Virus record (IMG/VR): IMGVR_UViG_3300046170_000265
Span: 1-57,403 of that record
Reading direction: 5' to 3' (one strand)
Source: a virus
Taxonomy: Duplodnaviria > Caudoviricetes
DNA: 57,403 nt
The notes beneath the pieces were generated by a model. It was given only the letters and a program-made list of their open reading frames with translations, was not told the DNA's origin and did no database searches. The position numbers were made by a program, and so were the translations under genes. Numbering within the stretch: position 1 is the first letter of the stretch; every line of letters begins with the position of its first letter. Below, piece by piece: positions 985 through 48,704 of this stretch.

Positions 985-1014
985 GGTATTGTATTCCTTC
1001 TTTTTTCGTTGGGA

Positions 1015-2075: not shown

Positions 2076-2083
2076 GATGGTCC

Positions 2084-2371
2084 TCACTCTTCTCCTCTCT
2101 GATTGTTGTCATCGTTTGCGGCTTCACTGGCTGATCGATCTCTGTCTTCGACTTGGACACGCTGTTGTCAGTGTCCCGAAACGATATCGACCAGTGCGCG
2201 ATAATGTTGATGTGCCTTTTCCCGGGCGTCGCTTTCCTCTGGTTTTGAGTTAGCGAACGCCTGGAAAGTGGCATCAACGAGTTGGTTTACGGTCGAGTTA
2301 AAGGCTTCTGCAGCGAGTAGTTTTTCCGCTGCAATGCCCTGCTCGACCAACTTCATTTGTTGGTCTTCCAT
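2084..2371 (-). CDS. Small conserved head-module protein; end approximate, frameshift near 2170
   Basis: AAGGAG RBS; homolog at 44314-44599 (FNS.VN.LV...FQ.F.NSKPEE). Confidence 0.7.
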
Positions 2372-2392
2372 CTATTTTCTCCTTGGGGAAAG

Positions 2393-4423: not shown

Positions 4424-4427
4424 TCGG

Positions 4428-20832: not shown

Positions 20833-21140
20833 GTGTCGTTGTATTCCTCTTCGAATGGGTTGTTATGTTCTGCTTTTGTTCTCATCGTGTCAATGAGCTT
20901 GTCGAGATACCAAGCGGCCTTCTCTACATCCTGTAGTCCACCTTTGTGATCACACCTGAAGTTGTATTTGAGGACGTTGCCACGACAGAACGCAGCGAAA
21001 CCTTCAGGGCCAAGTGCGGCCCGAATCGCATCAATGCACTCAATGTCGCCGTGGGTGTAGTGTGGTGGTGAATTGACCATATCCACATCTGACTGCTTGT
21101 TGGCTTGCTTCATGTATTCTTCATGCCTCAGCTGCGCCAT
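20829..21140 (-). CDS. DUF3310 / T7 gp1.7-like nucleotide kinase family protein
   Basis: VNSPPHY, IECIDAI, GNVLKY and KAAWYL motifs. Confidence 0.85.
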   Translation of the reverse strand: MAQLRHEEYMKQANKQSDVDMVNSPPHYTHGDIECIDAIRAALGPEGFAAFCRGNVLKYNFRCDHKGGLQDVEKAAWYLDKLIDTMRTKAEHNNPFEEEYNDT

Positions 21141-26165: not shown

Positions 26166-26378
26166 CTAGGCCAGGCTGTAACGTGTGTAACGCTGGCCTA
26201 GGTTGTCTTTCTTCCATTCACTGATGATCTCAAATCCAGCTTCACGCAGGTCAGCGATCCGTCGCGTAAGCGATCTGATCCGGTAAAGATCATTTGCTTC
26301 GACAAACGTGATACTGCCCACGTCAATCAAGTGGTTCAGGACTAGTTGGTATTGGGATTGCCCCATGTATTTCTTCAT
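26166..26378 (-). CDS. Small winged-HTH protein
   Basis: SITFVEA..LYRIRSLTRRIADLREAG pattern; start uncertain. Confidence 0.7.
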   Translation of the reverse strand: MKKYMGQSQYQLVLNHLIDVGSITFVEANDLYRIRSLTRRIADLREAGFEIISEWKKDNLGQRYTRYSLA

Positions 26379-26806
26379 GCGTCTTCTCCTTCTGTTAGCC
26401 ATTCGGTTGGGATTGATTTGTTCGCGTACTCAAACCCATGCTTGTCGCACCACTGGGCATATGTAGTTGGGCTGCCTTTGTAGAGACGGGCATTTTGGTT
26501 TGAGAACACGAAACGAATGTCGATTTCAGGGTGCTGATCACGGATAAGCAGATGCTTTTGTCGGTCGTCGACTAGCCAGCGGCCCTTGGTTTCGACATAA
26601 AAAAAGCCGCCTGGCTTAGGCAGCTTAAAATCTGGGCGATAGGTGGATGATCGCTCCGGCCAGAGATAACTGATCTTATCCTGTTCGTATTGAACTATAA
26701 GACCAGCGTCCTCGATTTGGCGGGAAACACTGTCTTCTAAGCCAGAGCGGTAGCCATTCTTGATGGCCCGTTTTCGTAGCTTAGAAATTGTATGCTTGAC
26801 CTCCAT
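26375..26806 (-). CDS. Endonuclease I / Holliday junction resolvase (T7 gp3-like); start uncertain
   Basis: YRSGLE, YRPDF, VETKG, HLLIRDQHPEIDIRFVFSN. Confidence 0.92.
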   Translation of the reverse strand: MEVKHTISKLRKRAIKNGYRSGLEDSVSRQIEDAGLIVQYEQDKISYLWPERSSTYRPDFKLPKPGGFFYVETKGRWLVDDRQKHLLIRDQHPEIDIRFVFSNQNARLYKGSPTTYAQWCDKHGFEYANKSIPTEWLTEGEDA

Positions 26807-27350
26807 CACCTTCTGCAGCTGGTTGATTGTCGTTAGCTGCTGATAGGTTGTCATTGGCGGCTACAAAGCCACCCTCTTCAGCTGCGAATGAAACACTTGA
26901 GGTTTCACCTTGAGACAGCTCAACGATCTGGACGCCAGCAAGTTGCAGTGAAACACCTTTGTTTCCACCTGCGACATAGGGGTAAATCGTGCCAGCGAGT
27001 TTCAATGTAGAGCCGCCGAAGATTGGCGGAACATTGTTTTCGCTGATCAGGTTGCCCTGGCTGTCCATGATCTTTGGTCTGAATTTCGATTTGGTAACGA
27101 TAATCAGCTGGCCTGTATCCTCATCCGTTTTGAACGGGAGGCGTACATTTTGCGCTTCTTTGGTGCCAAATTCGTTGTTTGCTGCTTCCTGGACCGCTTT
27201 GATCAGGTCCGCAGCATCAGCTTTGTCCAGCTTCAAGTTGACCTTGAACTGGCCGTTGCTGTCGAATTGAAAGTCTGCCTTGTTTAACCAAGGGTACATT
27301 GCGATGCCTTTAGCGGTGCTAAAGGTCAGTTTCTTCTTCGTGTTTGCCAT
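26781..27350 (-). CDS. ssb: Single-stranded DNA-binding protein (T7 gp2.5-like)
   Basis: GIAMYPWL, GGSTLK, GVSLQLAGVQI, acidic tail ending in Phe; AAGGAG RBS. Confidence 0.85.
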   Translation of the reverse strand: MANTKKKLTFSTAKGIAMYPWLNKADFQFDSNGQFKVNLKLDKADAADLIKAVQEAANNEFGTKEAQNVRLPFKTDEDTGQLIIVTKSKFRPKIMDSQGNLISENNVPPIFGGSTLKLAGTIYPYVAGGNKGVSLQLAGVQIVELSQGETSSVSFAAEEGGFVAANDNLSAANDNQPAAEGDGGQAYNF

Positions 27351-27513
27351 TGTGTGAATAATCTCCTTTTTCAGTGGCTTTAAATGTTGGCTCACCTAAA
27401 TATTCCAGCGATAAGCCGAGCTGGTCTGCCTGTGCGAGCAGGTCTAGTGGTATTGGGTCGCCGCGCTGGCGATATATCTGTGCCAGCCCAAGCAACTCCT
27501 CGATGGGATGCAT
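27319..27513 (-). CDS. Hypothetical protein (64 aa)
   Basis: AAAGGA RBS before MHPIEELL, just downstream of a phage promoter. Confidence 0.55.
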   Translation of the reverse strand: MHPIEELLGLAQIYRQRGDPIPLDLLAQADQLGLSLEYLGEPTFKATEKGDYSHNGKHEEETDL

Positions 27514-27547
27514 TAAGTTTCCTTTTTCCTGTTGATAGGGTTGTCTG

Positions 27548-27565
27548 TAGGTGAAACCAATTAAT
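27548..27565 (-). promoter_or_regulatory. Putative phage RNAP promoter
   Basis: ATTAATTGGTTTCACCTA, repeated intergenic motif shaped like the T7 promoter TAATACGACTCACTATA. Confidence 0.8.
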
Positions 27566-27579
27566 GGCTCCAAACGCAC

Positions 27580-27604
27580 AAAAGGCGGCCCGAGAGCCGC
27601 CCTT
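27580..27604 (-). terminator. Intrinsic terminator after the RNAP gene, between two phage promoters
   Basis: GGCGGC/GCCGCC stem followed by TTTTGTGCGTTT on the minus strand. Confidence 0.7.
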
Positions 27605-27609
27605 GTACA

Positions 27610-27627
27610 TAGGTGAAACCAATTAAA
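27610..27627 (-). promoter_or_regulatory. Putative phage RNAP promoter
   Basis: TTTAATTGGTTTCACCTA copy of the motif. Confidence 0.8.
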
Positions 27628-27638: not shown

Positions 27639-30518
27639 TCATGTCATGAAGTAGTCGCTTTCGCGAACCTTCGTAATGTCCAGATCGCCTTTGGCCGGTA
27701 CTTCTGGCCATTTCACTATCCGGAGTTTCAAGGCATCCAGTTCAGCATTAAGACCCTCGAGCAACCCTTCATCCTCTTCATGTTCAATTAGTTCTTGAAG
27801 GTTGTGAATTTGCTCCTTGATCTCGAGGCTGTCTGGATCTGGGTGTCTTGCTTTGCACTGCTCGAGAAGGTCGCTGTATAGACAATATCCGTCATACATC
27901 TCGACCATTGCGTCTCTGGCAGCATCCCGCATCACCTCAGCATTACCACAGGTAGTGGCATAGCTGTCGTGAACGACCATAAGATCAGTAACCCCATGAT
28001 CAGCGCAGCGTAAGGCAGTTAACATCAACAATGTGCTATCCATCGAATGGATTATGTTGGGACTTACTGCACTGACGCTTTTATTAGGATCAATGCCGGG
28101 CATTGTTTTGGTGTAGCTCATCAAGCCCCGAGATTTGATAGCCTCGATATCATGGCTGTAAAGAAACACCCGACGCCTTGCCGACTTATTGTTCCGATAG
28201 TATTGATGCACCGGAAAGTTGAGTTTTGGCGTTTTGAAAGTGAGATGTAGATCGGCGTCAACCATGATCTTGGCGCAAGCTTGGAAAAATTCCATGCCAT
28301 CTTTGGCTGACTTGATCACACTTTCGATTGCGTCTTGACTGATACCAGCTAAGTAATGAGATGCCTGGTAACCGCCATCTTCAGGGAATGGATGCTTCTC
28401 ACGTTCACCAGCGCGAACCTCAAGATCCATTTCGTCCATCCAGTCTTTTTTGAACTGCTGGGCGAAGCCATACTTGCGGCTCGAATAAGCCCAAACCATG
28501 GCCGGTCTCTTGATGACACTCCGGTTTAGGTACTTTTTGCCTTTTGGATTTTCATCAGTCGGCTCGACCTCATAGGACAACAGTACTCTTGCAATGTCGA
28601 TTTCTTGATCACGCTTCAATCTTCTGTGTGAAGCAGTCTTTTTATAATCACGCTTTGCCTTGCGTTTCCTTTTCTCGAGAGCGTCCATTTCATCTAGATC
28701 GTCAGCTTTTTCAGCCATGATCCTTTGATATGCTTTGTGCGCTTCCCGATCATTGTCATTCGCAGGGTCAAGCTCTTGATTTGCAAGTTTCTCAGCCTTG
28801 TCAGCTTCGATCATTTCTTCTGCAACCACGAGACAAGCCTTGTACAGGTCGTTAGGCTTATCTTCTGAGCCTTTGACCAGGTTAACTAGCAATCCGTCAT
28901 CTTCGTTCAAGCTAGCAGCAGCGTAATGCTGGATGCCGGATTGAGTTGCATCGACGGCAACAGGTAAACCAGACCAATGGTCCTTGCCTTCTTGCTGGGC
29001 AACCATGTATTCAGCCAAGTCACGGCAAGCAGCTAAGAACTGGAATGGATCGTCAGCCTTGCTCCAGAAATCAAATGACGCCTTGTAATCGATGCCGACG
29101 TTGACCACTTCTTCAAGGTTTTCTTCCACCCATTTGATCCGAGTGTCGTAGCTCTCTTTATCCAAGCCATAGGTGTTTGAAACCTGCAGAAGGATCCATG
29201 CTGAATTTTCCTCTGTTACCTTCGTCTTGTTGGCAAATAGAAACATTGCCCTCAAGAAATCTGTATTGTGGTGGCCAAAATCGCTGACGTGATAGACACG
29301 CCCTCGCCGGTCCCAATTGTGTGGCATCCAGAACTGATCATATTGAGCAAGCTTCCTAGCTTCATTCAATGTACGGCGGATCTTTGACCGGTTGGCCCGA
29401 GCTTGCCTGTTGACGGCTTTGCATCGAGTTAGATTTCGCATATGAGCGATTTGATCATCTTTATCGAGGTCATCGTAGTTCACGCCTTCGTCGAGCTTTG
29501 GAACCTCAACAGTTTTGGTGTTTGGAAACTTTTTGACCAAACGGCCCTTGCCCGTCTTGCGGACCCAATCGACAGCATCGACCACAAAGTCATTAACGGT
29601 GTAAGGCACCTGTTGCAGGAGGTTTAAAGCCTCAACAGCCTTGTCTAAGCTGCCATCTCGCAATCCTGCATCAAGATCCTTACGCTGCTCTGGGCCAGCG
29701 TGTTTGACCATTGGCGTCATGATTGCCAGGCGAGGTGTTATGTATGGACCGATTTGATCCAAACCCCATGGTCTTGGCATTACATTCATTGGTGCAAGGT
29801 ATGGCGACATACGGTCAAGATCAGCAAACTTTTCTTCGATCTCAGCTTCTACCTCGGGACGCAGGATCATGAATTTTTCTGGGAAGTCTTTCGTCTCATC
29901 CGCTAGATCTTTGTGCGTCATGAACACGTCTTTACAAGCAGCTTCGACCACTGACAGTAAAAATGAGCCGACAGTCTGTTCTAAACCGCCATCATCATCT
30001 TCCCACTTCTCGAAGGTAAAGCCTCTTTTGGCTGCCTGACGCAGGACGTAATCTTGACGTTTTTCAACCTTGTCACTTTGCAACGTGGCGTTTTGTGCCA
30101 GCCGCTTTGCTAGGCGGTCACCAGCACGATTTGCTTGAAGTCTGTGTTCAAAATCCAGACACTTGATCGCCTGGCCGACCCTGTTTGCCAGCGTATTGTA
30201 AGTCCATTCTTTCTCATGGCCATCAAGACACTGCATGAAAGCGACATAAGCGACATCAATCTGTGGTAGTTCCGCAAGTGGCTCAAGCCATTTGGCGTTT
30301 TGACCGCGGTTAGCACGGGTTTGCTCAGACTGGCTTACAATCTCATCCATGATGGGCTGAATGTATTGTTCGATTAGTTTGACAGATACAACACTGGCAG
30401 ACATATCAAGGCTCTGGCGGCGGTCTCTAGAGCGAGCTTCGCCCCGATCAACTATGTTGACCTGCTCATGCTCCAAAGCATCTTTTCTGGTCCTGGGTGT
30501 ATTGTCGTTTGCTACCAT
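27639..30518 (-). CDS. Single-subunit T7-like RNA polymerase (959 aa)
   Basis: DRRGRVY, PFQFLA, motif A DATQSGIQHY, motif B RSVIKRPAMVWAY, PNIIHSMDS, motif C VHDSY. Confidence 0.96.
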   Translation of the reverse strand: MVANDNTPRTRKDALEHEQVNIVDRGEARSRDRRQSLDMSASVVSVKLIEQYIQPIMDEIVSQSEQTRANRGQNAKWLEPLAELPQIDVAYVAFMQCLDGHEKEWTYNTLANRVGQAIKCLDFEHRLQANRAGDRLAKRLAQNATLQSDKVEKRQDYVLRQAAKRGFTFEKWEDDDGGLEQTVGSFLLSVVEAACKDVFMTHKDLADETKDFPEKFMILRPEVEAEIEEKFADLDRMSPYLAPMNVMPRPWGLDQIGPYITPRLAIMTPMVKHAGPEQRKDLDAGLRDGSLDKAVEALNLLQQVPYTVNDFVVDAVDWVRKTGKGRLVKKFPNTKTVEVPKLDEGVNYDDLDKDDQIAHMRNLTRCKAVNRQARANRSKIRRTLNEARKLAQYDQFWMPHNWDRRGRVYHVSDFGHHNTDFLRAMFLFANKTKVTEENSAWILLQVSNTYGLDKESYDTRIKWVEENLEEVVNVGIDYKASFDFWSKADDPFQFLAACRDLAEYMVAQQEGKDHWSGLPVAVDATQSGIQHYAAASLNEDDGLLVNLVKGSEDKPNDLYKACLVVAEEMIEADKAEKLANQELDPANDNDREAHKAYQRIMAEKADDLDEMDALEKRKRKAKRDYKKTASHRRLKRDQEIDIARVLLSYEVEPTDENPKGKKYLNRSVIKRPAMVWAYSSRKYGFAQQFKKDWMDEMDLEVRAGEREKHPFPEDGGYQASHYLAGISQDAIESVIKSAKDGMEFFQACAKIMVDADLHLTFKTPKLNFPVHQYYRNNKSARRRVFLYSHDIEAIKSRGLMSYTKTMPGIDPNKSVSAVSPNIIHSMDSTLLMLTALRCADHGVTDLMVVHDSYATTCGNAEVMRDAARDAMVEMYDGYCLYSDLLEQCKARHPDPDSLEIKEQIHNLQELIEHEEDEGLLEGLNAELDALKLRIVKWPEVPAKGDLDITKVRESDYFMT

Positions 30519-30552
30519 TAAACTCTCCTATTGTGACTAAAGTACTAAAGAT

Positions 30553-30577
30553 ATAGGGGGGTGAATACCCCCCATAG
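30553..30577 (-). terminator. GC-rich hairpin just upstream of the RNAP gene (terminator or attenuator)
   Basis: GGGGGGT-GAAT-ACCCCCC stem with only a weak U tract. Confidence 0.45.
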
Positions 30578-30585
30578 ACACAAGC

Positions 30586-30768
30586 CTAAGCAGCTTGGGT
30601 CTTGTTGTTGTCGTTAGCTGCATTAGCCAACAGGTCGCTAAGGTTTACCCGAGGTGTCTGGTGCTTCCATGGTGTTACTCCGGTTAGCACCTGATGCATC
30701 ATTTCTTCAGCATCTTGGTTGTAGTTTTGGACCTGGGTACCTTTGTTGTTGTCATTTAACATCATCAT
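30586..30768 (-). CDS. Small early protein ending in ssrA-tag-like AANDNNKTQAA
   Basis: AGGAG RBS; lies downstream of the phage promoter at 30811-30828. Confidence 0.7.
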   Translation of the reverse strand: MMMLNDNNKGTQVQNYNQDAEEMMHQVLTGVTPWKHQTPRVNLSDLLANAANDNNKTQAA

Positions 30769-30810
30769 TCTCCTACCTTGGTTGAACTAAAGACCGGAAC
30801 TGGCCGTATA

Positions 30811-30828
30811 AAGGTGAAACCAATTAAT
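30811..30828 (-). promoter_or_regulatory. Putative phage RNAP promoter upstream of the RNAP gene
   Basis: ATTAATTGGTTTCACCTT followed by TATA. Confidence 0.8.
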
Positions 30829-30863
30829 TCACTAAGGAAATCAATGGCTTCACCTTCTGGTCT

Positions 30864-31202
30864 TTAGGCTGCTTTTGACCAGCCTGTCAGGACCGTGTGG
30901 GGCAAGGTCGTCGTATGAGATGCTCGCCAATCGAAATTCAGATGATCCATCCGAGCGAATTGACGTCTGGCATGGATGTTTAACAATGGCTCGACGTCTG
31001 GGAACCGCTGAACCTGAAGAGCCATCCAGGCGCATAGCAACGCAACGCCGTCAAACTCCATGCGTTCGAATACGGCATCGCCTTCGCCAAAGCGGATGAA
31101 GACGGCATATTCGATTTCGTCCTGTGTGAACGAAAATTCATAGGGCCCATCGACACCAAGGTGATGAGTTACAAAATCGATAAATGTTTTTTCGGTTTTC
31201 AT
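30864..31202 (-). CDS. Hypothetical early protein (112 aa, ends KAA)
   Basis: AAAGGAG RBS; downstream of the promoter at 31246-31263. Confidence 0.7.
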   Translation of the reverse strand: MKTEKTFIDFVTHHLGVDGPYEFSFTQDEIEYAVFIRFGEGDAVFERMEFDGVALLCAWMALQVQRFPDVEPLLNIHARRQFARMDHLNFDWRASHTTTLPHTVLTGWSKAA

Positions 31203-31245
31203 AGTAAATGCTCCTTTTCACCAGAACCCGGGATGGGTTCGTATA

Positions 31246-31263
31246 TAGGTGAAACCAATTAAT
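31246..31263 (-). promoter_or_regulatory. Putative phage RNAP promoter at the head of the early region
   Basis: ATTAATTGGTTTCACCTA followed by TATA and a GAACCC/GGGTTC hairpin. Confidence 0.8.
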
Positions 31264-31420
31264 CTGCTGATGTGGATGTCCTGTGCCGGACAGCAGCGCA
31301 CTAGTGTGTGCGACTTCTTTGGATCGACGCGGTCGTGCCTTGTCGATGGAGCGTTAAATGTTCAATGACGGAGCATCGAGCATTTGCCCAAACTAGAACA
31401 AAAGCAGAACGCCGTCTACC

Positions 31421-31452
31421 AAAAAAAGGGCCACCGAGGTCATCGGCAGCCC
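31421..31452 (-). terminator. Intrinsic terminator after the integrase gene
   Basis: GGGCTGCCGA/TCGGTGGCCC stem with G-U pairs, followed by T7 on the minus strand. Confidence 0.75.
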
Positions 31453-31474
31453 ATCAGATTGGTTTGCTTGGATA

Positions 31475-32446
31475 TTATATTGACAGTGCGGACACAGCCC
31501 CTGCCCGTGCAGATGCGTCGCCATGATAGTACTTCTTTGTCGTAGCGACGCTGGAATGACCCAGCTGCTCAGCCACTGTCAATGAGTTGACCTTGGCCCG
31601 TGCCATATTGGTTGCAGCATAATGCCTTGTAGCGTGAAACTTGAACCAGGTGTCGTTGCCATGGCCCATAAAGTCCTTCACATCGTTCCAGCGGTCATAA
31701 AAGCGTCTGTGGGTGAACTCACGGCCAATGTTAGCCCGAAGCCACTGAGCGGCTTCCCATGCGCCATCAGCGACCAGGCTTACCCAGCGACCTTTGCTGG
31801 TCTTTGTAACTTGTGCCGGAAGCCAAACTTCCTTGGCATCATCGTTCCATTCAATAATGTCTAACGGTAACGCTACGATTTCGCCCTGCCTCATACCTGT
31901 AAGACAACCCAGCTTAATCATGTATGACACCCACTGGTCGCCATTGCGATCATGCAGCTCGATCATCTGACGTACCTGGTCTTTGGTGAAGGCACGGGTA
32001 TTTGGCTCAGCTTGCTTTAACAAGCCTACCCTTGGACGATCAGTCATGATCTGCAGTTCCTCGACTGCGAACCGGAAGCAAGCTGATACAGCAGACAGAT
32101 GCCGGTTGATTGTCGAATCAGTCATATCTGTATGTTGCTGGAGATAATTGCGATATGCGATACAGTCAGCAGCCGTGATCTGGTTCATCGGCTTCATGCC
32201 GTAGTCTTTGAAATCTGCGAATCGGGACACCTGCATCATACAGTCACGACGGTGCTTGAAGGCTCCCCACATATCACGCTGGTGCTTGTGAGCGAACATA
32301 AGGATATTAGAGCGGCTGCAGTCGAATTTGGTGTCGTCAATAGCAGCTGGAGCTGGCTCAGGGCGACTGTCGATTACATTGTTGGTACTGATGATTTCAT
32401 CTGAAGTGGGGTTAGAAAAGTCATCGAAAAGGTTAAATTGGTCCAT
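31475..32446 (-). CDS. int: Tyrosine integrase
   Basis: Catalytic residues TGMRQGE, TKTSK, FHATRH, LGHS and TKKYY; adjacent to the att site. Confidence 0.95.
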   Translation of the reverse strand: MDQFNLFDDFSNPTSDEIISTNNVIDSRPEPAPAAIDDTKFDCSRSNILMFAHKHQRDMWGAFKHRRDCMMQVSRFADFKDYGMKPMNQITAADCIAYRNYLQQHTDMTDSTINRHLSAVSACFRFAVEELQIMTDRPRVGLLKQAEPNTRAFTKDQVRQMIELHDRNGDQWVSYMIKLGCLTGMRQGEIVALPLDIIEWNDDAKEVWLPAQVTKTSKGRWVSLVADGAWEAAQWLRANIGREFTHRRFYDRWNDVKDFMGHGNDTWFKFHATRHYAATNMARAKVNSLTVAEQLGHSSVATTKKYYHGDASARAGAVSALSI

Positions 32447-32523
32447 CTTACGGTCTCCTTAGAGTTACATAAGATGAAACGGGGGGTGTGTCGCTTGACT
32501 ACCGCCGATTTCTAGCAGTCATT

Positions 32524-32575
32524 CAAGCGACTGTTAATCGCTTGGCCGGCGGTTCGAATCCGTCCCGGGGAGCCA
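32524..32575 (+). pseudogene. 3' half of tRNA-Asn(GTT), att core region
   Basis: Anticodon arm AGCGA-CTGTTAA-TCGCT, T arm GGCGG-TTCGAAT-CCGTC, acceptor strand CCGGGGA-G-CCA; no D arm or 5' acceptor strand upstream. Confidence 0.9.
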
Positions 32576-32587
32576 ACTCTCTAAGTT

Positions 32588-32600
32588 TATCAACAACTTA
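32588..32600 (+). promoter_or_regulatory. IHF binding site next to att
   Basis: TATCAACAACTTA matches the consensus WATCAANNNNTTR exactly. Confidence 0.65.
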
Positions 32601-32764
32601 GATGACATATCCCAAAACTTTAAATTCTTGCCTTTGGTAAAGCGATTGTTGCCCTCAACCTTCGCTTGTCCCCTTATATATAAGCTTTTCCTAGCTTAAT
32701 TACAACTGCTGGGAAACCGGTTCTGCTGGGATACTGTTGGTACATCAGGGGTTCTGCAAAGCCG

Positions 32765-32830
32765 TGTATGTCGCTTGACTGAGGAAAGCGATTGCCAGTC
32801 GCTTGGCCTAAAAGGGTAAAGCGACATACA
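32765..32830. repeat. Nested inverted repeats containing an att-core-like site
   Basis: TGTATGTCGCTT (32765-76) and AAGCGACATACA (32819-30) enclose AAGCGA-TTGCCAG-TCGCTT (32786-32804). Confidence 0.8.
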
Positions 32831-32919: not shown

Positions 32920-35244
32920 ATGAAAATCCCACAACAAATGACTAAGCGACAAAAAGACAGGCTTACGGTTCTGAATTCAAAAGGCATCACCGCTCTTCAA
33001 ATAGCCAAAATACTTGAGCTTCCTTTAGTGTTGGTTGAGGAAGAAATTGAAACGCGAAAGCAAAATCTTTTGAAGAAAAGATGGACGAAAGACCAGTCAA
33101 ATGAAGCGTTAGACTTATATGTCAAAAACGTGTCTCTAACTGAAATTGCAAACCTAACTGGTAAAACTAGAGTGCAGATAGCAAGGCACTTCAGAGATAT
33201 TAGGGATGACTGGGTTAACGAAGGCACAAAATACAACTATTTGAATGTTGATTTGAGAGTGAAATTAGCAGCTAAAATTGAACGAAGGGAAAACACTGAC
33301 AAGCGGCCAATAAGAATGGCTAGAGCGAGGCTCCCTGACAAAATACGGAGCAAGCAGCTAGCTGGTCTCGCAGAAACACTCGCTTATAAAGAAAATGTGC
33401 TGCTTGATGAATGGTGGCAGTTTGGCGTCCTAAACAGCGTTGAGGATGACCGCCTTAGCCTGACTGCAATCTCGAAGGACAACAACAGGGTTACATTAAT
33501 CAAGAAGTACACGCCGAACTGGAAAGAAGTTCTGCTGAAACTGAAAGGCTTGATGGGTGAATTTGTTTCTGTCCGTGTAATTCAAAATTACTTACCAGTT
33601 GTTAATGCCGGAGCAGGAACTAAGAAAGATGTTGTCTACGAACCACGGATGGTTGACGTAACGGCATCTGAAGGCATCATGAGCCTCGCAAAGTCCTTCC
33701 CAAGTGACACCCGAAACCAGTCTTTCATTGGAAGGTATAAGTGGTTGCGCTTTGGCGAGTTTGAAGCCAAGTCAACCAGCGAACACATTCTCATTGGAAA
33801 TGTTGATGGTCGGGTCATGGCTTTCCGAAAGGGCAGCATCAACAGCGTTCTAGAGCAACGTCTCACGGACACTTTAGATATGGCTGAAGGTCAATCTATC
33901 TTGGTTTGTGTAGACCAAAAAAATCCAAAGCCTGACGGTGTTTTAAGCGTGTTTGTTGACGCACACATCGAAGAGGAAGGCATTGAGACTTACAACGAAG
34001 ACTACAATACAATTGTAGAAACGATTGCTCGCACAAAGGATGAAGCTGCTGAGGCTAACTTGACAGTGCAAAAAAAGCACAAAGAGATACAACAGCAGCT
34101 ACTAGAGAAAGAAGTGCAACATACAAAACAGATTACAGAACTGAAGTTTGAGTTCGAGCGTGAAACACAAGAAGTACAAGCACAGATAAAGGAACAAACA
34201 GGTGCTTTTAGACGCTTAGAAGCAGAATTACAAAGAGAGCTGCTAGATTACAATGAACAAGAGAGGTTTCTGCGCGACACAAAAGAAGGGCTTCAACAGT
34301 ACAAGGTAGGTGTTCTAGCAGCGGCTGCAGACCAAACAGGGTCGGGCAGCACTTTTCAAATGAAAGGGCTGAAGGTAATACAAGGCGAAGAGGCTCAGTG
34401 GCATGATTTCAATGAGGCAATCAAGGCATTTGAGGGGAGTGGAGGTGAAGAAGCACAAGAGCTTTACAAAGAAATCCAAGACCTAAAAAGGGAAGTGTTA
34501 AAAGCACATAAGAATGCAGCTGCTACTTCAAATACCTCTGAAGAAGAGGAAGGGTTTGAGCCACCAGAACCAGATTACATCCTCAACCCTGAAGCAGACC
34601 TCTCGCTTTTTGATGAAAAGCAACCAGACCCGGACAGCCCAATGATGGCAATGATGCGAGAGATGATGGCAGAAGTGCAGAGTTTAAAAAGCTCGCAACA
34701 AAGTTTTATTGAAGCATCAGCAATGACAGAGTTTGAAGTTCAAGAGTTACGTGACTATTCCCGTGCAGAAGACGAAGAGTTGAGTACAGACAACGCAAAA
34801 ACAGAAGCTGAACACAAAGACATACTGGAGAATGTGAGAGAGTTTGTCGGAAAGCCACCAAGGCAACTAAAAGTGTACGTTGGTCACGCTCGGAATACAC
34901 TATGTCTTCGCGCCGGTATCGACCTTACAAGGGAAAAACCTGACAACAGGATTGATGTTCAGTTTACCAAACACATTGGTAAATCAACGTTTCTGGTTCA
35001 CTTCCCCAAATACAATCATGACGCAATGCTATCCATTGTTCGAGACTCGAAAGACAAAAACGATTTTGCAGTAAAATCATGCCTTCATCTTGATGGTGAA
35101 AGGTGGAAAGAAATTGAACAGGAAGTCACAGGACAAGGTGGTAAGCGTCTGACAGGCAAAAAGCCCAAACAGTGGTTAGCATATCGCAAACAGATAATTG
35201 CAAAGCTAGAAGCACCTAAAGCGAAAAAAAAGGCCAGAGGATAA
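32920..35244 (+). CDS. Uncharacterised 774-aa accessory protein: tandem HTH, duplicated domain, coiled coil, C-terminal domain
   Basis: Only long plus-strand ORF in the window, AT-rich, between att and the endolysin. Confidence 0.85.
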   Translation: MKIPQQMTKRQKDRLTVLNSKGITALQIAKILELPLVLVEEEIETRKQNLLKKRWTKDQSNEALDLYVKNVSLTEIANLTGKTRVQIARHFRDIRDDWVNEGTKYNYLNVDLRVKLAAKIERRENTDKRPIRMARARLPDKIRSKQLAGLAETLAYKENVLLDEWWQFGVLNSVEDDRLSLTAISKDNNRVTLIKKYTPNWKEVLLKLKGLMGEFVSVRVIQNYLPVVNAGAGTKKDVVYEPRMVDVTASEGIMSLAKSFPSDTRNQSFIGRYKWLRFGEFEAKSTSEHILIGNVDGRVMAFRKGSINSVLEQRLTDTLDMAEGQSILVCVDQKNPKPDGVLSVFVDAHIEEEGIETYNEDYNTIVETIARTKDEAAEANLTVQKKHKEIQQQLLEKEVQHTKQITELKFEFERETQEVQAQIKEQTGAFRRLEAELQRELLDYNEQERFLRDTKEGLQQYKVGVLAAAADQTGSGSTFQMKGLKVIQGEEAQWHDFNEAIKAFEGSGGEEAQELYKEIQDLKREVLKAHKNAAATSNTSEEEEGFEPPEPDYILNPEADLSLFDEKQPDPDSPMMAMMREMMAEVQSLKSSQQSFIEASAMTEFEVQELRDYSRAEDEELSTDNAKTEAEHKDILENVREFVGKPPRQLKVYVGHARNTLCLRAGIDLTREKPDNRIDVQFTKHIGKSTFLVHFPKYNHDAMLSIVRDSKDKNDFAVKSCLHLDGERWKEIEQEVTGQGGKRLTGKKPKQWLAYRKQIIAKLEAPKAKKKARG

Positions 35245-41102: not shown

Positions 41103-41708
41103 TCAGCATATGTGTAAGCCGGTTGCATAACTTGCATCCCGCCAGTTCAGCTCTTGGTCATTGCTCTGTTCTTGTAATTCGGTGAGGAACTGATTGAACT
41201 TGGCTTCGAAAACTGATGAGCGTTCATCAAGGTAGAAATCTGCACTGTAGGCCAACGCTCCGTAGATGATGAGGTCGGGTGCAACAGCTGCCAGTGTGTT
41301 TTCATCTGTATTTGCGACCATTGGGGCAAATTCACTGTAGTAATACAGAACCAAATCCCCAGAAGTTGGTTGCGGGTGCAGAATGAGGTTCTGCTGTTGG
41401 CGTGTGAAATGCTTGGGGCTGCCTTGAATTGGGTTCGCTACATATGGCCTCATTTTTCCCATCGGTATGCGTTGCAGCTCTTTATCATCAAAATAGATGC
41501 TGATGATTTCCAAGAAATCTGTCGGCAAGGTTATCTGAGGCGTGGTGGTTGTGAGCGTGTAAGTTAGGACGCTTTCGTTGAGCGGGGTGCGCAGCTGCCG
41601 TTGAATACGTGCGATAGATTGGTCAATGAATGTTGTGGTAAGGGCCGCTGTAATATCTGAGCGGTTCAGTAGTGCTTCAAAGTGACTTTTGATATCGCCG
41701 TAATTCAT
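41103..41708 (-). CDS. Head-tail adaptor / tail tubular A-like protein; C-terminus possibly frameshifted
   Basis: LNRSD, I.R.LR, LPTDFLE and PDLIIYGAL pattern of podoviral adaptors. Confidence 0.75.
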   Translation of the reverse strand: MNYGDIKSHFEALLNRSDITAALTTTFIDQSIARIQRQLRTPLNESVLTYTLTTTTPQITLPTDFLEIISIYFDDKELQRIPMGKMRPYVANPIQGSPKHFTRQQQNLILHPQPTSGDLVLYYYSEFAPMVANTDENTLAAVAPDLIIYGALAYSADFYLDERSSVFEAKFNQFLTELQEQSNDQELNWRDASYATGLHIC

Positions 41709-41711
41709 AAT

Positions 41712-41864
41712 TTAAGCCCTGCCCGTTTTCTTTTTCTTTGGTTTCGCTGTCGCTGCTGCCTTGCGAAAAGCAGCATCGCTCGGCGCACCTTTGTCGCCAG
41801 CCGACCGCATCTTTTTACCGCTAGCACGGCGTTCGTGGATGTTTGCATAAAGCCCGGGCTTCAT
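41712..41864 (-). CDS. Small basic protein MKPGLYANIH...
   Basis: GGGGG RBS, TAATG coupling to the upstream ORF. Confidence 0.7.
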   Translation of the reverse strand: MKPGLYANIHERRASGKKMRSAGDKGAPSDAAFRKAAATAKPKKKKTGRA

Positions 41865-41947
41865 TAGTAAGCCCCCTTTGTTCGCTTGGCACATTTGCCA
41901 GCTTTGCGGCACTTCGCCTTCGTTTTGCATGATTTGCAAAGGGTCAT
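41864..41947 (-). CDS. 27-aa Cys/Lys-rich microprotein MTLCKSCKTKAKCRKAGKCAKRTKGAY
   Basis: AGGAG RBS; stop overlaps the next ATG; below the ORF-track length cutoff. Confidence 0.65.
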   Translation of the reverse strand: MTLCKSCKTKAKCRKAGKCAKRTKGAY

Positions 41948-41956
41948 ATCGTTCTC

Positions 41957-42274
41957 CTAGATACTTTTGTCTGTGGTTAAAAAGCCGTCCAAGTTTTCAG
42001 CTTTCAATCTGGATACAATCTCTGCACCCGTGATGTTTCTATCGGACATGATGTCGAAGCCTTCACGCCGCCACTTCTCGACCACAACAGTGGGAATTGA
42101 AGCTACACGCATGAAGTTACCTTCTCGCTGTCCACGGCTGGCGTCTCGCTCTCGCTTCAGGCCATCCATAAATGATTGAGGTATGTGCTGTGTATGTTTG
42201 CGGGTAAGCGTTTCGTCATCTTCTTCAACAAAGTTGGTATCGATGCCGATAAGGTTCGTGTCACGTTTTGACAT
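41957..42274 (-). CDS. Conserved hypothetical protein downstream of the capsid gene
   Basis: AGGAGA RBS; RVASIP.VVVEKW..EG.DI motif. Confidence 0.75.
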   Translation of the reverse strand: MSKRDTNLIGIDTNFVEEDDETLTRKHTQHIPQSFMDGLKRERDASRGQREGNFMRVASIPTVVVEKWRREGFDIMSDRNITGAEIVSRLKAENLDGFLTTDKSI

Positions 42275-42318
42275 GAGTTCTCCTATTGGTGTCTTTTTTA
42301 GGGATAAATTAAGAGAGA

Positions 42319-42356
42319 CGAGAGGCGCGACAAGGAGAGCAAATTCGCACCCCTCG
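42319..42356 (-). ncRNA. Conserved stem-loop downstream of capsid gene B, loop AUUUGCUCUCCUUG
   Basis: 12-bp stem CGAGGGGUGCGA/UCGCGCCUCUCG that is fully paired only on the minus strand (two G-U pairs). Confidence 0.6.
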
Positions 42357-42368
42357 CCCTCTAACTGT

Positions 42369-43259
42369 TTAGCTTAGGCCGGTAATCATACCTGAGTCTG
42401 AATACGACATATGCTTGAGCGAGTATTCGCCGACAATCGCATGGCGGTCGCCGTCTTGCTGTTTCGCAAGCAGTGTCCGTGTAAACGGACGCAGTACGCA
42501 TGAGCGGAACATGGTTGGGTCGATAAGCAGAGCGTGAGTGCTTAACAAGTGGCGGTTCAAAATGACGCGATATTCACCATAGGGGCTAACGTACAAATCA
42601 ATAGCGTTAACCAAGGTTTTATTGCCATCATTGATTTCACGGCTACGCCCAGAGGCTGCAGTGAAGCCAGCAACGATTTGTGCGTCAGCTGGTTTAATCA
42701 TGAAGGTAGTTGGGTCTGAACCATTGCCGTAACAATCTTCGCCTAGCTCCAGAAGTTTTGCTTCTGTTAGTGGGTCGGTAGCGTTTGAACCAGCATCTAC
42801 AGTTGTAGAAATCTGCGGGATAACACTATCCATCTCACGGGCGGTTGAAGCGTTACCAGTTACCTTGGCGTTGTCTTGGCCCACATAAGCAAATTCTAAA
42901 TCACGCTTTATGGATTTTAGGGCTTTCGACAGCTGATGAGCCGTTTCTTTTGCCCTGCCGTGTAGCCGAATTGAGTCAGCTGTGGCGGTCACCTCAAACA
43001 CATCAGAAAGTATCTGCGTATTATTAGTGCGTAAGGTTGTTGCTGAACGAGCTACGTTCACAAATTCAGCTCCCTCGACAGCCTTATTATCGGCTGCGTT
43101 TGGAAGCGCATCTTCCATCCATTCAAATACGCGAGCATTCACTTTTTCGGATTTGATAAGGGAAGTAAAAGGGGTGTCCGTAGGGGTAATCGAAGTGATA
43201 ATCGAACTGACATCCTCCGCTTTACCTACTTGGTCGTAGGTGGAAAATTCGTTTGCCAT
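42369..43259 (-). CDS. Major capsid protein B (SU10/DUF5309-like)
   Basis: Intact 296-aa ORF; EDVSSIITSITPTDTPF, NNTQI and LKSIKRDLE motifs. Confidence 0.9.
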   Translation of the reverse strand: MANEFSTYDQVGKAEDVSSIITSITPTDTPFTSLIKSEKVNARVFEWMEDALPNAADNKAVEGAEFVNVARSATTLRTNNTQILSDVFEVTATADSIRLHGRAKETAHQLSKALKSIKRDLEFAYVGQDNAKVTGNASTAREMDSVIPQISTTVDAGSNATDPLTEAKLLELGEDCYGNGSDPTTFMIKPADAQIVAGFTAASGRSREINDGNKTLVNAIDLYVSPYGEYRVILNRHLLSTHALLIDPTMFRSCVLRPFTRTLLAKQQDGDRHAIVGEYSLKHMSYSDSGMITGLS

Positions 43260-43288
43260 GTTGTAAGTATTCCTTTTTGGCTATTGGG

Positions 43289-44321
43289 TTATGTTTCCCA
43301 ACGCTTCAAAAGAACTTCAGCAATATCGTCGATGTCACTTCCTGCAGACTGTGCCAGCTTTGCCTCTGCATCTTGGATGCGCTTGGCTTTAAGCTGGGCG
43401 TTATTCGCCGGTGACTTATTAGATTTAAGCACCTTCTTGGCGACACGCTTTTTCTTTGTGGTGGTGACTTGCTTGGCTTGGTCGTAAAGACGAGCCTTGT
43501 TCAGCACCTTGATAACCACAGGGTCTACGTAGTTGTTGACTTGTTCTTCGGGCAATCCAAGCCCGATAGCATATGACCTGATATCGTCATAAAGCTGATT
43601 GTTCCAATCCGGCACATCTTGCTCCAGCACCTTTACAGCCTCTTTGGCTGCATCTTGCATTGCTGCTTGTTGCTGTTGCTTTAGTCCGTCATAGAAGCTG
43701 GCTTGCTTCTTCTTTGATAAATTTCAAATCATTGTGTGCGTCCTGAGCTTCTTTGCGCAGTTGCGTGAAGTCAGCGTCATCCAAGTTCTTTGAAGCTAAA
43801 ATCATGTCAACTTCTGAATATGGTTGGTAGCGTTCTTCAGCCTTCTGCACCATGCGCTGCAGGATAGCATCGGTTTTGCCGATATTGTCTTCAGCCTCTT
43901 TGCGTTGAGCTGCTACTTCTTGAGACTTTCTGGTAAGGCTTGCTTCTTGTCCGTAAAGACGCTTCAAATCTTTGATGGATGCCTGTTTGGTTTCGCCTTC
44001 GACTGAGATTTCAATGAGAGTGTCATCGTCAACTTCGACAGTTTCCTCTTCATCATCTTCTTCTTGGTCTTCGGCTTCTTCCTCTTCTTCGTCAGGGTCT
44101 ATCTCTTCATCTTCGTCATCTAGTTCGACTTCTTCAATCGCCTCATCTTCCTGCTCTTGGACATCTTTAGTCTCGTCATTGTCCTGAGCAGTAGCCTCTT
44201 CCGTAGCTTGTTCTGATGGCTGGTCACCAGCGTCTTCCCATCGCTTCAAAAGGGCGTCAGCCGCTTCGTTAACATCTAACGCTTGCGGCCTCTGTTCTTG
44301 AGATGTTTGCACGTTATCCAT
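43289..44321 (-). CDS. Capsid scaffolding protein B, frameshift near 43690
   Basis: ORFs 43689-44360 and 43289-43660 together match scaffold A. Confidence 0.8.
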
Positions 44322-44599
44322 GGTGCTATTCTCCACTGTTATCGTTGGCCTCAGCTTCACGCTTGGTCAGTATTTCGTCACGAATTGCCACACGCTGCTT
44401 TAAGCGTATGGACAACTCCGACAAGACCTCTGTAGTGAAAATAAGACTGTTCTCTTTGGTCGGCTTCTTCAGGTTTCGAGTTAACAAATCCCTGAAATGC
44501 CTCTTCTACTAGACTGTTCACAATGCTATTGAACGTATTGTTTTTCAATAACTCTTCAGCCTGATTGCCTTGGTCATACAAGGCATCTTCGTCTTGCAT
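44314..44599 (-). CDS. Small conserved head-module protein B; end approximate, frameshifted
   Basis: AAGGAGAG RBS; homolog of 2084-2371. Confidence 0.7.
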
Positions 44600-44624
44600 A
44601 GAATTCTCTCCTTAAAGTGTTAGC

Positions 44625-46662
44625 TTAACCAGTTGGGCTGACGATGCCTCGTCTGTCCTCTGTGGTTTTCAGCAATTCTAGTTCGCCTTCATCGACAAAT
44701 TTCTTATGCTCGAACTCAGCTTCTCTGAGGTCTTGCTGGTCTGACTGCATGGCGAATTGTGATTGCGCTTTGGCTGCATCAAGCTCCATCTTGCTGGCTG
44801 CTTGTTGCGCCTGAGTTGCCACCTTCTGTTCAGCAACAACTGTCTGACGCTCCTGCAGTTCCATTTGCTTCTGCGCCATCTGCGCTTGCATCTGAGCTGC
44901 TTGGTCAGGTTGTGGTGGTGGCAGCTGTTCTGGGCTTGTCAGGTACTCATTCACGTTGAGTATTCCTTGCTGCTCCAAAATCTGCTTCATCATGTTGTAT
45001 TTGTTTTCCATGCCGTATAGCGGCTGGAGCGATGGGTCTTGTGACATGAGGGTGTGAAGGGCCAGATACTTCTGTGCTTCACGCTCCTGTTCGCCATAGC
45101 CAAGCTTCATCTCGACCATAACGTCACGCTTCTCTTTCCAAGAGCGTGGGTCAATTTCGACAAAGCCCCCTGCTATATCCACGACCTTTTCGTACTGCTC
45201 GTTTTCAACTACTAGTCCTGTATGCTTCGTGATAAAGCGGCTTCAGGAACTGCATAGCAAAATTACGAGATATAATTTTGGCTCGTTGCTGGCTCATGGT
45301 GGCGAGTTGCTCGACCATGGCAGCACTATTTTGTTTGCTAATAGCGTCCTTGTTCATCCCAGTGCTGAGTGAGCTAACTGAGGATGTCTCTTCTTTTTCG
45401 TCATCAAGCAAATTGATGGTTTGGAAAATGAAGGGGTTTAGGGGTGCTTGCGGCATAGGCTGCACGGCATCTGGGCGGGTTACATTCACGATACCGCCAA
45501 CTTTGTTCGAAATTAGCTCTCTGGCGTTGCTCAAGCCACCTTTCACAATCATGTATTTTGGATTGTTAGCTACCACCGCATGGTCAAGAATTGAGCGTGT
45601 CAGTACAGTTTTAGCGTTTTGAGTGGCAATAAGCTTGCTTGCGAAGTTCGCACCGTAAAAGCTATGGGGCGTAGGTAATGGCGTAAAAGTGATGAACGGG
45701 CGTCTATCGACCTTTTCCATCTCAAGTATCTGGTTGCCAGCTTTGACTACTTTATGAAGCGTAGCCTCACCCGTGGCGTCTGGGTCAATTTTGATATACG
45801 CCTCGTACACCATGATTTCACGTACTTGGTCGATATAGCCATGAGCGTGGTTTCTACGACCGCCGCCGATTTGCTCAAACCTAGCCAGTATCTCAGGGTC
45901 AGTCTCAAGCTCTACGTCTTCATGGTCTGTGCCAATCAGTGAGATTTTGTCTTCGTCATCTGGGTACATCTGGCGCAATTCGGTCAGGCTTTTGCGTGTC
46001 CGGTGCGCACAGAAATCAACATCAATTGATGCAGCTTGTGCTTGGATTAGAAACTCTTCTGGGGCGATTGGCTCAATGCGTACTTGTGATACGTCTATTT
46101 TGCGTTCAATCGTGCCTGAGATAAGTCCAATCTCGTTGGTTTCGCTGTCTACTAGCTCGATGTCGTCATCAGCTAGAAGCAAGTCTAGCTCGTCTTCAGT
46201 TAGGTTCTGAAACTCTTCTTCTTGCGGCTCTGACGCCTGTTCCCAGTAGATTTTACAGACACCTATACGTGCCATCAGGCCATCTAAAATAACTTGTTGG
46301 GCCGCACCGAAAAAATCATTCTGGCGATGGATTACGTAGTCCGTATACGAGGAGCAGATTTCACTTGTTTGCACATCATCCGGCCCTGTTGGCGCAAATC
46401 TAACGATGCGGTTACCAGCTGCAAATGTCTCCAGAAGCAATGCTGACATTGACTGAACGCCAGCCCAAACATCTTGGCTAATATATTTGCTGTTAGCATC
46501 GTGCGCTGGTGTAGGCTTTTCGGCGTTGTAATATTCAGTGACCTTCTTGCGTTCTTGGCTCAACTCACTGTCGTAATAACCTACGGCTGATTTGATGTTC
46601 AGCTCCAAAGCCTTCAGGATATCGCCGTCATCCATGGGCTGGTAGTCATCTATTTTTGCCAT
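44625..46662 (-). CDS. Portal protein B, frameshift near 45210
   Basis: ORFs 45205-46662 and 44625-45182; shares DAISKQNSAAMVEQLATMSQQR with portal A. Confidence 0.9.
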
Positions 46663-48240: not shown

Positions 48241-48704
48241 CCTCTAACAAACCAGACAAGAAATCCTCAGCCTTGCTGAGTGCGACTTCAGATTTTGAAG
48301 CTGGCTTTTGACGGGTGAAGTCCAAAACAAGTCTGGCAGCTGCGACACGCTCTCGATTGTCACCTACCGTGCGCATTACTTCGACTGCTGTTTCCAGAGC
48401 GACTTTTGCGTACTCGTCCTCGATATCAAATTCTTTTGCCATGATTTCTACTGCCTTTTTGGCCTCAGCTTTCACTTTGGCTCTTATTGGTTCGATTGTT
48501 TCTTTGCTATATCCATCGGGAACACCGCGTGGTCGCCCTGCATTTTTACGGGGCTTTGTTGACCACTGTCGCCGTAATGCACGGCCTTCTTCGGTCTGCA
48601 TCTAGCGAAGCAAAATAGTTATTTTTTGGTGCTTTTTGCGGGTGTTTTCCTTGGCCTTTTTTGCTGGGGCTTTTCGCCCGTGGCTTTGACGGCTTTGAAC
48701 CCAT
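48191..48704 (-). CDS. terS: Probable terminase small subunit B, frameshift near 48602
   Basis: LRRQWSTKPRKN.GRP.G.PDGY shared with copy A; N-terminus PRAKSPSKKGQGK in another frame. Confidence 0.7.

Follow-up and report, generated by a model that had tools for sequence, protein, structure and literature searches.

How is the RNA polymerase (RNAP) of an integrase-carrying, T7-like phage kept silent in a host chromosome when the gene for that polymerase lies behind promoters that its own product would recognize? The question is raised by IMG/VR virus record IMGVR_UViG_3300046170_000265, whose entire length of 57,403 bases, with nearly all genes on the minus strand, was analyzed here and is called the window. 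Its region 30519-31470 separates a tyrosine integrase gene, int (31475-32446, minus strand; 323 amino acids [aa]; Pfam Phage_integrase, 5.6e-19; PHROG 1, 2.6e-42), from the gene of a T7-type single-subunit RNAP (27639-30518, minus strand; 959 aa; Pfam RNA_pol, 7e-82; PHROG 414, 1.6e-148). A preliminary description, drawn from the letters of the window, saw in this region a temperate switch without a repressor, in which RNAP that feeds back on its own gene and is degraded would, together with a small decoy protein, set a threshold. Having compared the locus with its relatives, we lean toward a different account, namely, that this is the early control region of a T7-like phage of SAR116 bacteria, in which a priming promoter gated by host LexA would feed a self-amplifying RNAP gene.

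A probable box-bearing promoter ahead of the RNAP gene

Ten bases past the T run of the terminator that follows int, the minus strand reads TAGACG gc GTTCTGCTTTTGTTC TAGTTT (31418-31390). Comparison with relatives marks this stretch (31390-31418, minus strand) as a candidate host-type promoter with an operator, directed toward the RNAP operon: a -35 element, TAGACG (31418-31413), and a -10 element, TAGTTT (31395-31390), are separated by a 17-nt spacer that is filled by a box at 31410-31396, and this box, GTTCTGCTTTTGTTC, is a direct repeat of the form GAAC-N7-GAAC. The exact 15-mer, GAACAAAAGYAGAAC when read on the other strand, is found in the window and in 15 other loci, an integrated prophage included. 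When the relatives are taken together, all 22 loci with at least 150 bp ahead of their first phage promoter have a GAAC-N7-GAAC box no more than 400 bp upstream of it, and in 21 of the 22 the box lies 106 to 210 nt before it, over a background of 0.093 boxes per kb across 344 kb of these loci; the 22 loci are related, and the count does not stand for 22 independent events. Ten different spacers and both orientations occur among them, and it is the GAAC repeats that are kept while spacer, orientation and flanks vary. Of 15 contexts, 12 have a TTGAC-type -35 element at a fixed distance from the box, and the other three (the window, L002 and L010) differ from it by one mismatch. There are two layouts. 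In one, the box takes up the 17-nt spacer upstream of a TAnnnT -10 element; in the other, its second half itself forms the -10 element, TAGAAC, which fits the Caulobacter-type -10, TANAWC. The promoter points at the RNAP operon in every context, the overlap of the box with the -35 and -10 elements having been judged by inspection. On this evidence, we consider it quite likely that the box-bearing element is a host promoter.

Some observations weigh against this assignment. Taken by itself, the window does not contain the box above chance (2 GAAC-N7-GAAC sites against 1.99 expected), the support for the box comes from loci that are related and not independent, and the window's promoter is weak by consensus (7/12). 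Sigma70 consensus scans of the minus strand of 30519-31470, at thresholds of at least 9/12 and at least 8/12, found nothing. We regard both scans as false negatives because the conserved promoter scores 7/12; the view of the preliminary description that no convincing sigma70 promoter is present here likewise gave way once the relatives were compared.

Two further observations concern this element. A leader of the pattern ..GCWCGATGC..CATTGWACRTTYAGC..CAGCGAC follows the box-bearing promoter (31380-31330, and in relatives) and is kept among phages whose RNAPs are only about 30 to 35% identical; Rfam had no family matching this region in the eight loci scanned. A second module, TTGACA with GAACAAAAGCAGAAC (20867-20881, minus strand), is present elsewhere in the window and also in L038 and L040. 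It lies in frame within a DUF3310 gene, immediately ahead of the genes for ribonucleotide reductase and ThyX, and may serve the prophage as a host promoter through which DNA damage induces nucleotide-synthesis genes.

The terminator after int (31421-31452, minus strand) was recognized by folding as an intrinsic one, with a 10-bp stem that includes 7 GC pairs and a run of seven T residues (stem 31452-31428 plus the T run, -21.3 kcal/mol, z -4.0). It is also present in L002 and has equivalents after int in L007 and in the prophage of G103, a complete 2.75-Mb genome of the predicted host order that contains a 39.9-kb prophage of this clade. The preliminary description had placed a terminator here and considered the RNAP region to be insulated by it, and we agree on both points. 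Because the terminator would block transcription from int, the box-bearing promoter would be the sole entry of host RNAP into the early operon. This bears on the mode of priming published for phage LUZ100 (Putzeys et al. 2023, PMC10134795), in which host RNAP is proposed to read through the int terminator and a positive feedback loop to follow. Applied to the window, such a model would have host RNAP start upstream of int, and the box element would not be a promoter at all. The order of int, terminator, phage promoter and RNAP is indeed that of LUZ100, and in G103 the promoter and 5' half of the host tRNA-Lys gene are directed into int. The int terminator is strong, however, and in G103 it would also stop transcription from the tRNA-Lys promoter; MarR is lacking, and in relatives the TTGAC element keeps a fixed spacing to a TAnnnT or TAGAAC -10. 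We find priming by read-through scarcely credible here.

Beyond the box-bearing promoter, two copies of a 23-nt motif, TTAATTGGTTTCACCTWTATACG, lie upstream of the RNAP gene on the minus strand, at 31262-31240 and 30827-30805, and, as the preliminary description had noted, both point into it. When up to three mismatches were allowed, the 23-mer had 4 matches in the window against 0 expected (0/100 shuffles), and a position weight matrix (PWM) gave five strong copies, all on the minus strand (31262, 30827, 27626, 27564 and 24475) and none on the plus strand. We refer to these as P1 (31240-31262; mismatch scan, PWM and folding), which is followed by a leader hairpin; P2 (30805-30827; mismatch scan and PWM); P3 (27626-27604) and P4 (27564-27542), which stand directly after the RNAP stop codon (27542-27626; scan, PWM and folding); and P5 (24453-24475; PWM), before MazG and DNA polymerase. 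Several of the copies are followed by leader hairpins on folding. The P3/P4-type pair after RNAP recurs in L001 and L003 at an identical spacing of 62 nt. A de novo promoter scan, which took in 31 related loci, found at least two copies of a lineage-specific 18-mer 300 to 1000 nt before RNAP in 21 of the 25 loci with at least 600 bp upstream (in L002 the automatic choice missed the two copies, which were found separately). The 18-mer recurs no more than 300 bp after RNAP in 11 of 15 loci with both flanks, the others being L011, L016, L034 and L036, and across relatives it has 79 matches on the coding strand against 0 on the opposite one. The motif has a common core in L001 to L003 (75 to 76% RNAP identity) and becomes increasingly different at 50%, 46%, 38% and below, as expected for a polymerase-specific promoter. 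Like the promoters of the T7 group, it is a contiguous repeated motif of about 20 nt, is codirectional at gene starts and varies with the RNAP lineage, and by these marks the 23-nt motif is very probably a phage promoter.

The placing of RNAP downstream of its own promoters, which the preliminary description had reported for the window, is thus found clade-wide, and we think it very likely that RNAP is an autogene in a layout conserved throughout the clade. The order of int, terminator, promoter array, small early genes, RNAP and promoter is conserved across this marine clade of integrase-carrying phages. An integrase is present in 14 of 18 related loci scanned; the other four are L006, which has little upstream DNA in the locus, and the three most distant loci. 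In the window, the order on the minus strand is int, terminator, host-type promoter with its box, leader, P1, ORF112, P2, ORF60, a GC hairpin, RNAP, P3 and P4 (ORF, open reading frame). L002 is the closest relative (RNAP 76%, int nearly identical); it carries the same terminator, followed by two copies of the motif, a homologue of ORF60 and hairpins ahead of RNAP, while ORF112 is missing. ORF112 is itself an early gene of no family (30864-31202, minus strand; no match in Pfam, PHROG, NCBIfam or PADLOC).

Two structures adjoining the promoters stand apart from this argument. P2 forms the right arm of an 80-nt palindrome (30787-30867, not assigned to a strand) that folds as a long hairpin in a P1 transcript (-33 kcal/mol, z -5.4) and that has outer 13-nt arms and a degenerate inverted promoter copy at 30837-30856. 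The palindrome, which L002 lacks, could serve for processing by an enzyme of the RNase III type or act as an operator. Between P3 and P4, a terminator-like hairpin (27575-27603; -22.5 kcal/mol, z -5.1) is followed by UUUUGUGCGUUU; it may end the early operon, and since it starts a few bases past P3, transcripts from P3 would begin with it.

Candidate repressors and a possible removal of leak

The attP core (32526-32575, plus strand; sequence reading and contig matches) is the 3' half of tRNA-Asn(GTT), with CAAGCGA-type repeats on both sides, and its 50 nt recur exactly in 70 genome contigs, mostly of SAR116/Puniceispirillales; the host is predicted to be SAR116 because the core matches tRNA-Asn there. 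In Caulobacter and its relatives, the SOS box is GTTCN7GTTC (PMC9578287, Table 1), and the box at 31396-31410 has the direct repeat of an alphaproteobacterial LexA-controlled promoter. The host lexA gene is itself preceded by a tandem GAAC-N7-GAAC-N7-GAAC before its start codon in 2 of 2 host genomes. Several results from the hosts speak against a role for LexA. The exact box was found in the recA region of neither of two genomes (0/2); upstream of recA in G103 there are only two one-mismatch sites, GAACAAAAAGTGAAA and GAACAAAAACAGTAC, with the same A-rich spacers, and the 5 matches at this locus against 2.47 expected are not significant. No box was found in the host uvrA-ssb region, and a single exact copy of the 15-mer was seen in a host genome, ahead of mraZ, a gene without an evident SOS role. 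In addition, a conserved winged-helix protein of the phage could bind the box instead of LexA. With these points weighed, we are inclined, though not strongly, to see LexA as the repressor of the box-bearing promoter.

A profile search of all ORFs for repressors, which the preliminary description had recommended, found no CI, Cro, S24 or MarR family among the 75 ORFs of the window (Pfam, E<=0.01), and NCBIfam and PADLOC searches of a subset of these ORFs found no repressor family either. CI/Cro-type immunity, that is, an HTH_3/XRE repressor, usually with S24 and divergently transcribed, had no match in the window in Pfam, PHROG or NCBIfam. Pfam scans of ORFs of the G103 prophage (12 in one scan and 39 in another) likewise found no CI, Cro, S24 or MarR. 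The marine isolate CRP-125 has the order MarR-int-RNAP, with MarR beside int, and has no box. As far as family searches can tell, then, the phage has no recognizable repressor of the CI/Cro/MarR type, and the statement that no CI-like repressor is present holds for the 75 ORFs, with the qualification that two putative DNA-binding proteins, one of 78 aa (HTH_39) and one of 774 aa with helix-turn-helix (HTH)-like units, are encoded in the window.

The first of these (26166-26402, minus strand; Pfam) is a winged-helix protein conserved in the clade; besides the window, the G103 prophage encodes it, as do 19 metagenome loci, at 62 to 85% identity. It gives substance to the view that a phage repressor does exist: HTH_39, or some other unrecognized small protein, would bind the box and silence the priming promoter, and the system would be conventional but for the autogene. 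A conserved binder would fit a conserved operator, and several early ORFs are without a known family (Pfam, PHROG, NCBIfam and PADLOC). Yet the HTH_39 gene lies in the middle operon behind P3 and P4, between endonuclease I and primase, which is an unusual place for a lysogeny repressor; we saw no separate promoter for it; an identity of 70% is nothing unusual between the window phage and the G103 prophage (terL 86%, DNA polymerase 63%); and the operator agrees both with the LexA box of the host and with the operators at host lexA. We judge silencing by a phage-encoded repressor to be unlikely.

The 774-aa protein is encoded by a divergent gene that adjoins attP and occupies a variable cargo slot (32920-35244, plus strand; structure model and relatives). 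Its model (predicted local distance difference test [pLDDT] score, 65.8) has two N-terminal HTH-like units, an OB-like beta domain, a coiled coil and a C-terminal domain. Pfam, PHROG, NCBIfam and PADLOC gave it no family, ESM Atlas gave no usable match and the Foldseek matches were confined to weak OB-fold rows (E, 1e-3 to 1e-2). The preliminary description had named this protein as an example of a dedicated repressor that would overturn its own model, a candidate that we rejected: the slot has unrelated genes in other relatives and is empty in G103, so that the protein is not the common regulator of the clade. All the read runs consisted of contigs; the two RNA runs among them contained only relatives at 90 to 95% and showed no transcript starts, and the lack of coverage of the 774-aa gene in them is not evidence of silence.

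The SOS-box host-type promoter probably acts as the trigger of the early region. In the prophage, host LexA would occupy the priming promoter, no phage RNAP would be made and P1 and P2 would stand idle. Were LexA lost in the SOS response, or not yet bound on incoming DNA, host RNAP would transcribe ORF60 and the RNAP gene, and the new RNAP would fire P1 and P2 upstream of its own gene and P3 to P5 downstream of it, making commitment self-amplifying. With a LexA-type box in 22/22 relatives, silencing by a repressor, be it host LexA or a winged-helix protein of the phage, is simpler than a proteolysis threshold alone.

Any leak through such a gate might be dealt with in a second way, which is suggested by short motifs in the early proteins. 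The host ssrA tag is (A)ANDNTAPVAIAA; the transfer-messenger RNA (tmRNA) of three SAR116 genomes encodes ANDNTAPVA(I/M)AA. The tag was read from six-frame translation of tmRNA loci, ARAGORN having found no tmRNA in the Rfam-positive loci, and SspB was found beside tmRNA in 3 of 5 host genomes. The RNAP of the window begins MVANDNTPRT, and relatives with at least 42% identity to it start MA(A/V)NDNTP, while more distant ones are without the motif. ORF60 (30586-30768, minus strand) is a conserved early protein ending AANDNNKTQAA, in which N52-D53-N54 is invariant in an alignment of the 15 family members. The ANDN of RNAP (MVANDNTP) and of ORF60 (AANDNN) is identical to the start of the host tag, and the proteome of phage 1 of the record (which holds two; see below) has 5 occurrences of ANDN against 0.23 expected (0/2000 shuffles reach 5). 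When ORF60 was modeled with two copies of SspB(1-125), the complex scored 0.65 and the best of three controls 0.00, a mark reached by 116/157 solved complexes and 2/215 mismatched pairs, counts that are only rough since we used our own alignments. The model runs agree in at least 55% of contacts with a partner pLDDT of at least 44, and the least-error contacts fall at A51-N54, with AANDN in the SspB groove. Across the clade (26781-27395 in the window, and relatives), ANDN is also seen in the C-terminal tails of the single-stranded-DNA-binding protein (SSB) (..GGFVAANDNE....YNF), at the C termini of endonuclease I (..EGANDNEPE) and in an insertion in RNAP (PANDNDRE). The recurrence suggests a shared short linear motif for one partner, for which SspB and a phage hub protein are candidates.

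The N terminus of RNAP copies the stretch with which the host ssrA tag begins and to which SspB binds, so that SspB/ClpXP may turn the polymerase over, and ORF60, with the same motif in the same operon, may compete for SspB. A GC hairpin between ORF60 and RNAP (30552-30576, minus strand; -15.6 kcal/mol, z -2.3), which the preliminary description had also pointed out, is conserved in position in L002, L005 and L006, with a T6 run in addition in L006, and is a possible attenuator; together with the possible SspB-dependent turnover, it would damp leak. Three points tell against the proteolytic part of this scheme. A C-terminal Ala-Ala is present in only 2 of 15 ORF60 homologues (those of the window and L002), most of which end KGE; the ANDN motif of RNAP is N terminal, unlike a true ssrA degron; and since solved SspB-ssrA peptide complexes exist, the pass of the model may reflect likeness only and not binding. 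The proposal that RNAP and ORF60 carry tag-like motifs was borne out insofar as these equal the start of the host tag and AANDN of ORF60 is modeled in the SspB groove. We regard an SspB layer as tentative and somewhat doubtful. As to a full three-layer switch without a phage repressor, in which a LexA gate, the RNAP autogene and the removal of leak by SspB/ClpXP would combine with titration by ORF60 to sharpen the threshold, we think it unlikely; if true, the same logic would hold generally for an entire clade, namely, integrase-carrying T7-like phages that infect marine alphaproteobacteria. The ANDN motifs, conserved in four protein families, point to a possible phage link with SspB/ClpXP, and our search of the literature found no paper on phage mimicry of the ssrA/SspB motif.

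It is against this background that the model of the preliminary description must be seen, according to which leak, feedback, degradation of RNAP and an ORF60 decoy would yield a bistable switch without any operator. The autogene layout, the ssrA-like motifs with the SspB model and the failure to find CI, Cro or MarR all accord with it. Engineered T7 autogenes, however, are known to run away on any leak, and a host-type promoter with an operator-like box in 22/22 relatives makes regulated priming simpler. The Ala-Ala end of ORF60 in only 2 of 15 members counts against it as well, as do relatives below 42% RNAP identity that have the same architecture without the N-terminal motif. We hold such an operator-free switch to be very improbable. 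The earlier interpretation is therefore partly supported: its title was right in that no phage repressor can be recognized and wrong in that a putative host promoter with an operator, the very finding it had named as telling against it, lies within the region it described.

Integration, lysogeny and the rest of the record

That phages of this clade do integrate is seen in G103, whose prophage is bounded by 50-bp exact direct repeats that equal the 5' half of tRNA-Lys. The host genes coaD and gyrA adjoin int, and the endolysin lies at the opposite end. The early region of this prophage runs int, terminator, promoter, TTGACT with the box, two promoters, an ORF60-like gene (SNDNTP), one ORF, RNAP and a promoter. 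Compared with the window, most of its genes show 60 to 86% identity, the outliers being RNAP (30%) and int (33%), and its RNAP, DNA polymerase, terminase and portal genes are intact. Weighing on the other side, its capsid gene is represented by two high-scoring segment pairs about 237 nt apart and by no single ORF, so that the prophage may be defective, and an RNAP of this kind was found in only 1 of 192 genomes of the host order.

These facts bear upon the view that there is no true lysogeny here but only transient integration, as in T7-like cyanophages, in which case the promoters would be lytic early promoters and the box would tune them to the state of the host. The rarity of prophage RNAP (1/192) is in keeping with it, as are two precedents: Shitrit et al. 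(PMC8776855) found integration without stable lysogens and without repressor homologues, and LUZ100 is reported to have yielded no stable lysogens (PMC10134795). A full-length prophage in G103, with RNAP, polymerase, terminase and portal intact between att repeats, fits such a view poorly, and so do endolysin remnants beside tRNA-Asn in 3 SAR116 genomes (L099, L106 and L109/L110). We consider transient integration without lysogeny quite improbable.

The attachment region has further features. In the read runs, depth at the att core is 141 against about 4.3 in the flanks, and the loose ends are host tRNA 5' halves. The repeat (A/C)AAGCGA(C/T) occurs at least seven times, in either orientation and on both sides of the att core (32490-32830), with similar repeats in L002; these are probably integrase arm sites. 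An att element between the divergent gene and int is seen also in L023 (full tRNA), L026 (partial tRNA), L031 (weak tRNA-like match) and L038 (tmRNA-like fragment, E 0.001). L010, L029, L036 and L038 have two tandem tyrosine recombinase genes in place of one. Many SAR116 contigs (L055 to L124) end at this tRNA-Asn or no more than about 100 nt from it, and three contigs carry two copies of the att core 930 to 1460 nt apart, which suggests that tRNA-Asn is an integration hot spot with small islands or remnants.

The record itself holds two related phages head to tail, at 1-32446 and 35249-57403, whose late genes (344-6423 and 42616-48659) have 65 to 67% DNA identity. Frame breaks are found in terminase, portal, scaffold and tail-tube B of the upstream phage and in portal and the C-terminal end of capsid of the downstream one. 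No single contig of the read runs spans the 50-nt att core that joins the two, which may be tandem prophages or a chimeric join via the core. Past P3 and P4, the genes run gp2.5-type SSB, endonuclease I, the 78-aa winged-helix protein, primase-helicase, P5, MazG, DNA polymerase and late genes. While replication and transcription genes are T7-like, the head genes are SU10-like (SU10_MCP, SU10_portal and SU10_adaptor; 148-4486 and 41103-46662), and the structural order of tail tube, internal proteins, terminase, portal, scaffold and capsid is unlike that of T7. Among isolated phages, identity to this RNAP reaches only about 25%, but a clade of its relatives is found in metagenomes. A megablast search of isolated phages found no match for a close relative, a pattern scan of genome contigs for relatives of the RNAP found none and a search of IMG/VR for close relatives led to one incomplete locus.

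Comparison with known systems

T7 expresses its gene 1 RNAP from strong host promoters at the left end, three in number and not regulated; the phage promoters phi1.1A/B stand directly after gene 1, no strong phage promoter drives gene 1 itself, phage transcripts start with leader hairpins and there is no integrase. P3 and P4 of the window, directly after RNAP, resemble phi1.1A/B. The difference lies upstream, where the window has phage promoters interposed between its candidate host-type promoter and RNAP.

Closer in layout is LUZ100 (PMC10134795), which has an integrase, a terminator and a phage-specific promoter directly upstream of the phage RNAP, with a MarR-like regulator beside int; MarR is also proposed there to serve for silencing in other lineages. 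A phage promoter before RNAP with positive feedback is therefore already published for LUZ100. The window shares with it int, a terminator and a phage promoter upstream of RNAP. Unlike LUZ100 and CRP-125, the window has no MarR in its 75 ORFs, nor has the G103 prophage; it has a separate candidate host-type promoter with a GAAC-N7-GAAC box after the terminator; and it has small ORFs, the ANDN protein included, between the promoters and RNAP.

Among marine T7-like phages, integrase genes are reported from 625 of 1143 populations (PMC12361551). Cyanophages and pelagiphages of this type (PMC8776855, PMC12361551) are described with a tyrosine integrase, an att site in a tRNA gene and no CI-like repressor, with attP usually between int and RNAP and stable lysogeny not found. 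The window differs in that its structural genes are SU10-like and its attP is on the far side of int, so that integration leaves the stretch from int to RNAP undivided.

For silencing by a host repressor, the nearest precedent is GIL01 of Bacillus thuringiensis, a temperate phage whose lytic promoter has SOS boxes and is reported to be repressed by host LexA in place of a CI-type repressor (PMC4551915, PMC6182141). GIL01 is a tectivirus with a linear plasmid prophage, it requires the small phage protein gp7 as a cofactor of LexA and it is not known to have a phage RNAP autogene; for the window phage, LexA binding is predicted from the sequence. Our search of the literature found no paper combining LexA with T7-like (Autographiviridae) prophages. 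An SOS-type operator on the sole host-type promoter before an RNAP autogene, taken with an integrated copy, would give a concrete answer, for one clade, to the question of how such a phage stays silent. Repression by LexA without CI is known from GIL01 and feedback by RNAP from LUZ100, and what would be new is their combination in T7-like prophages.

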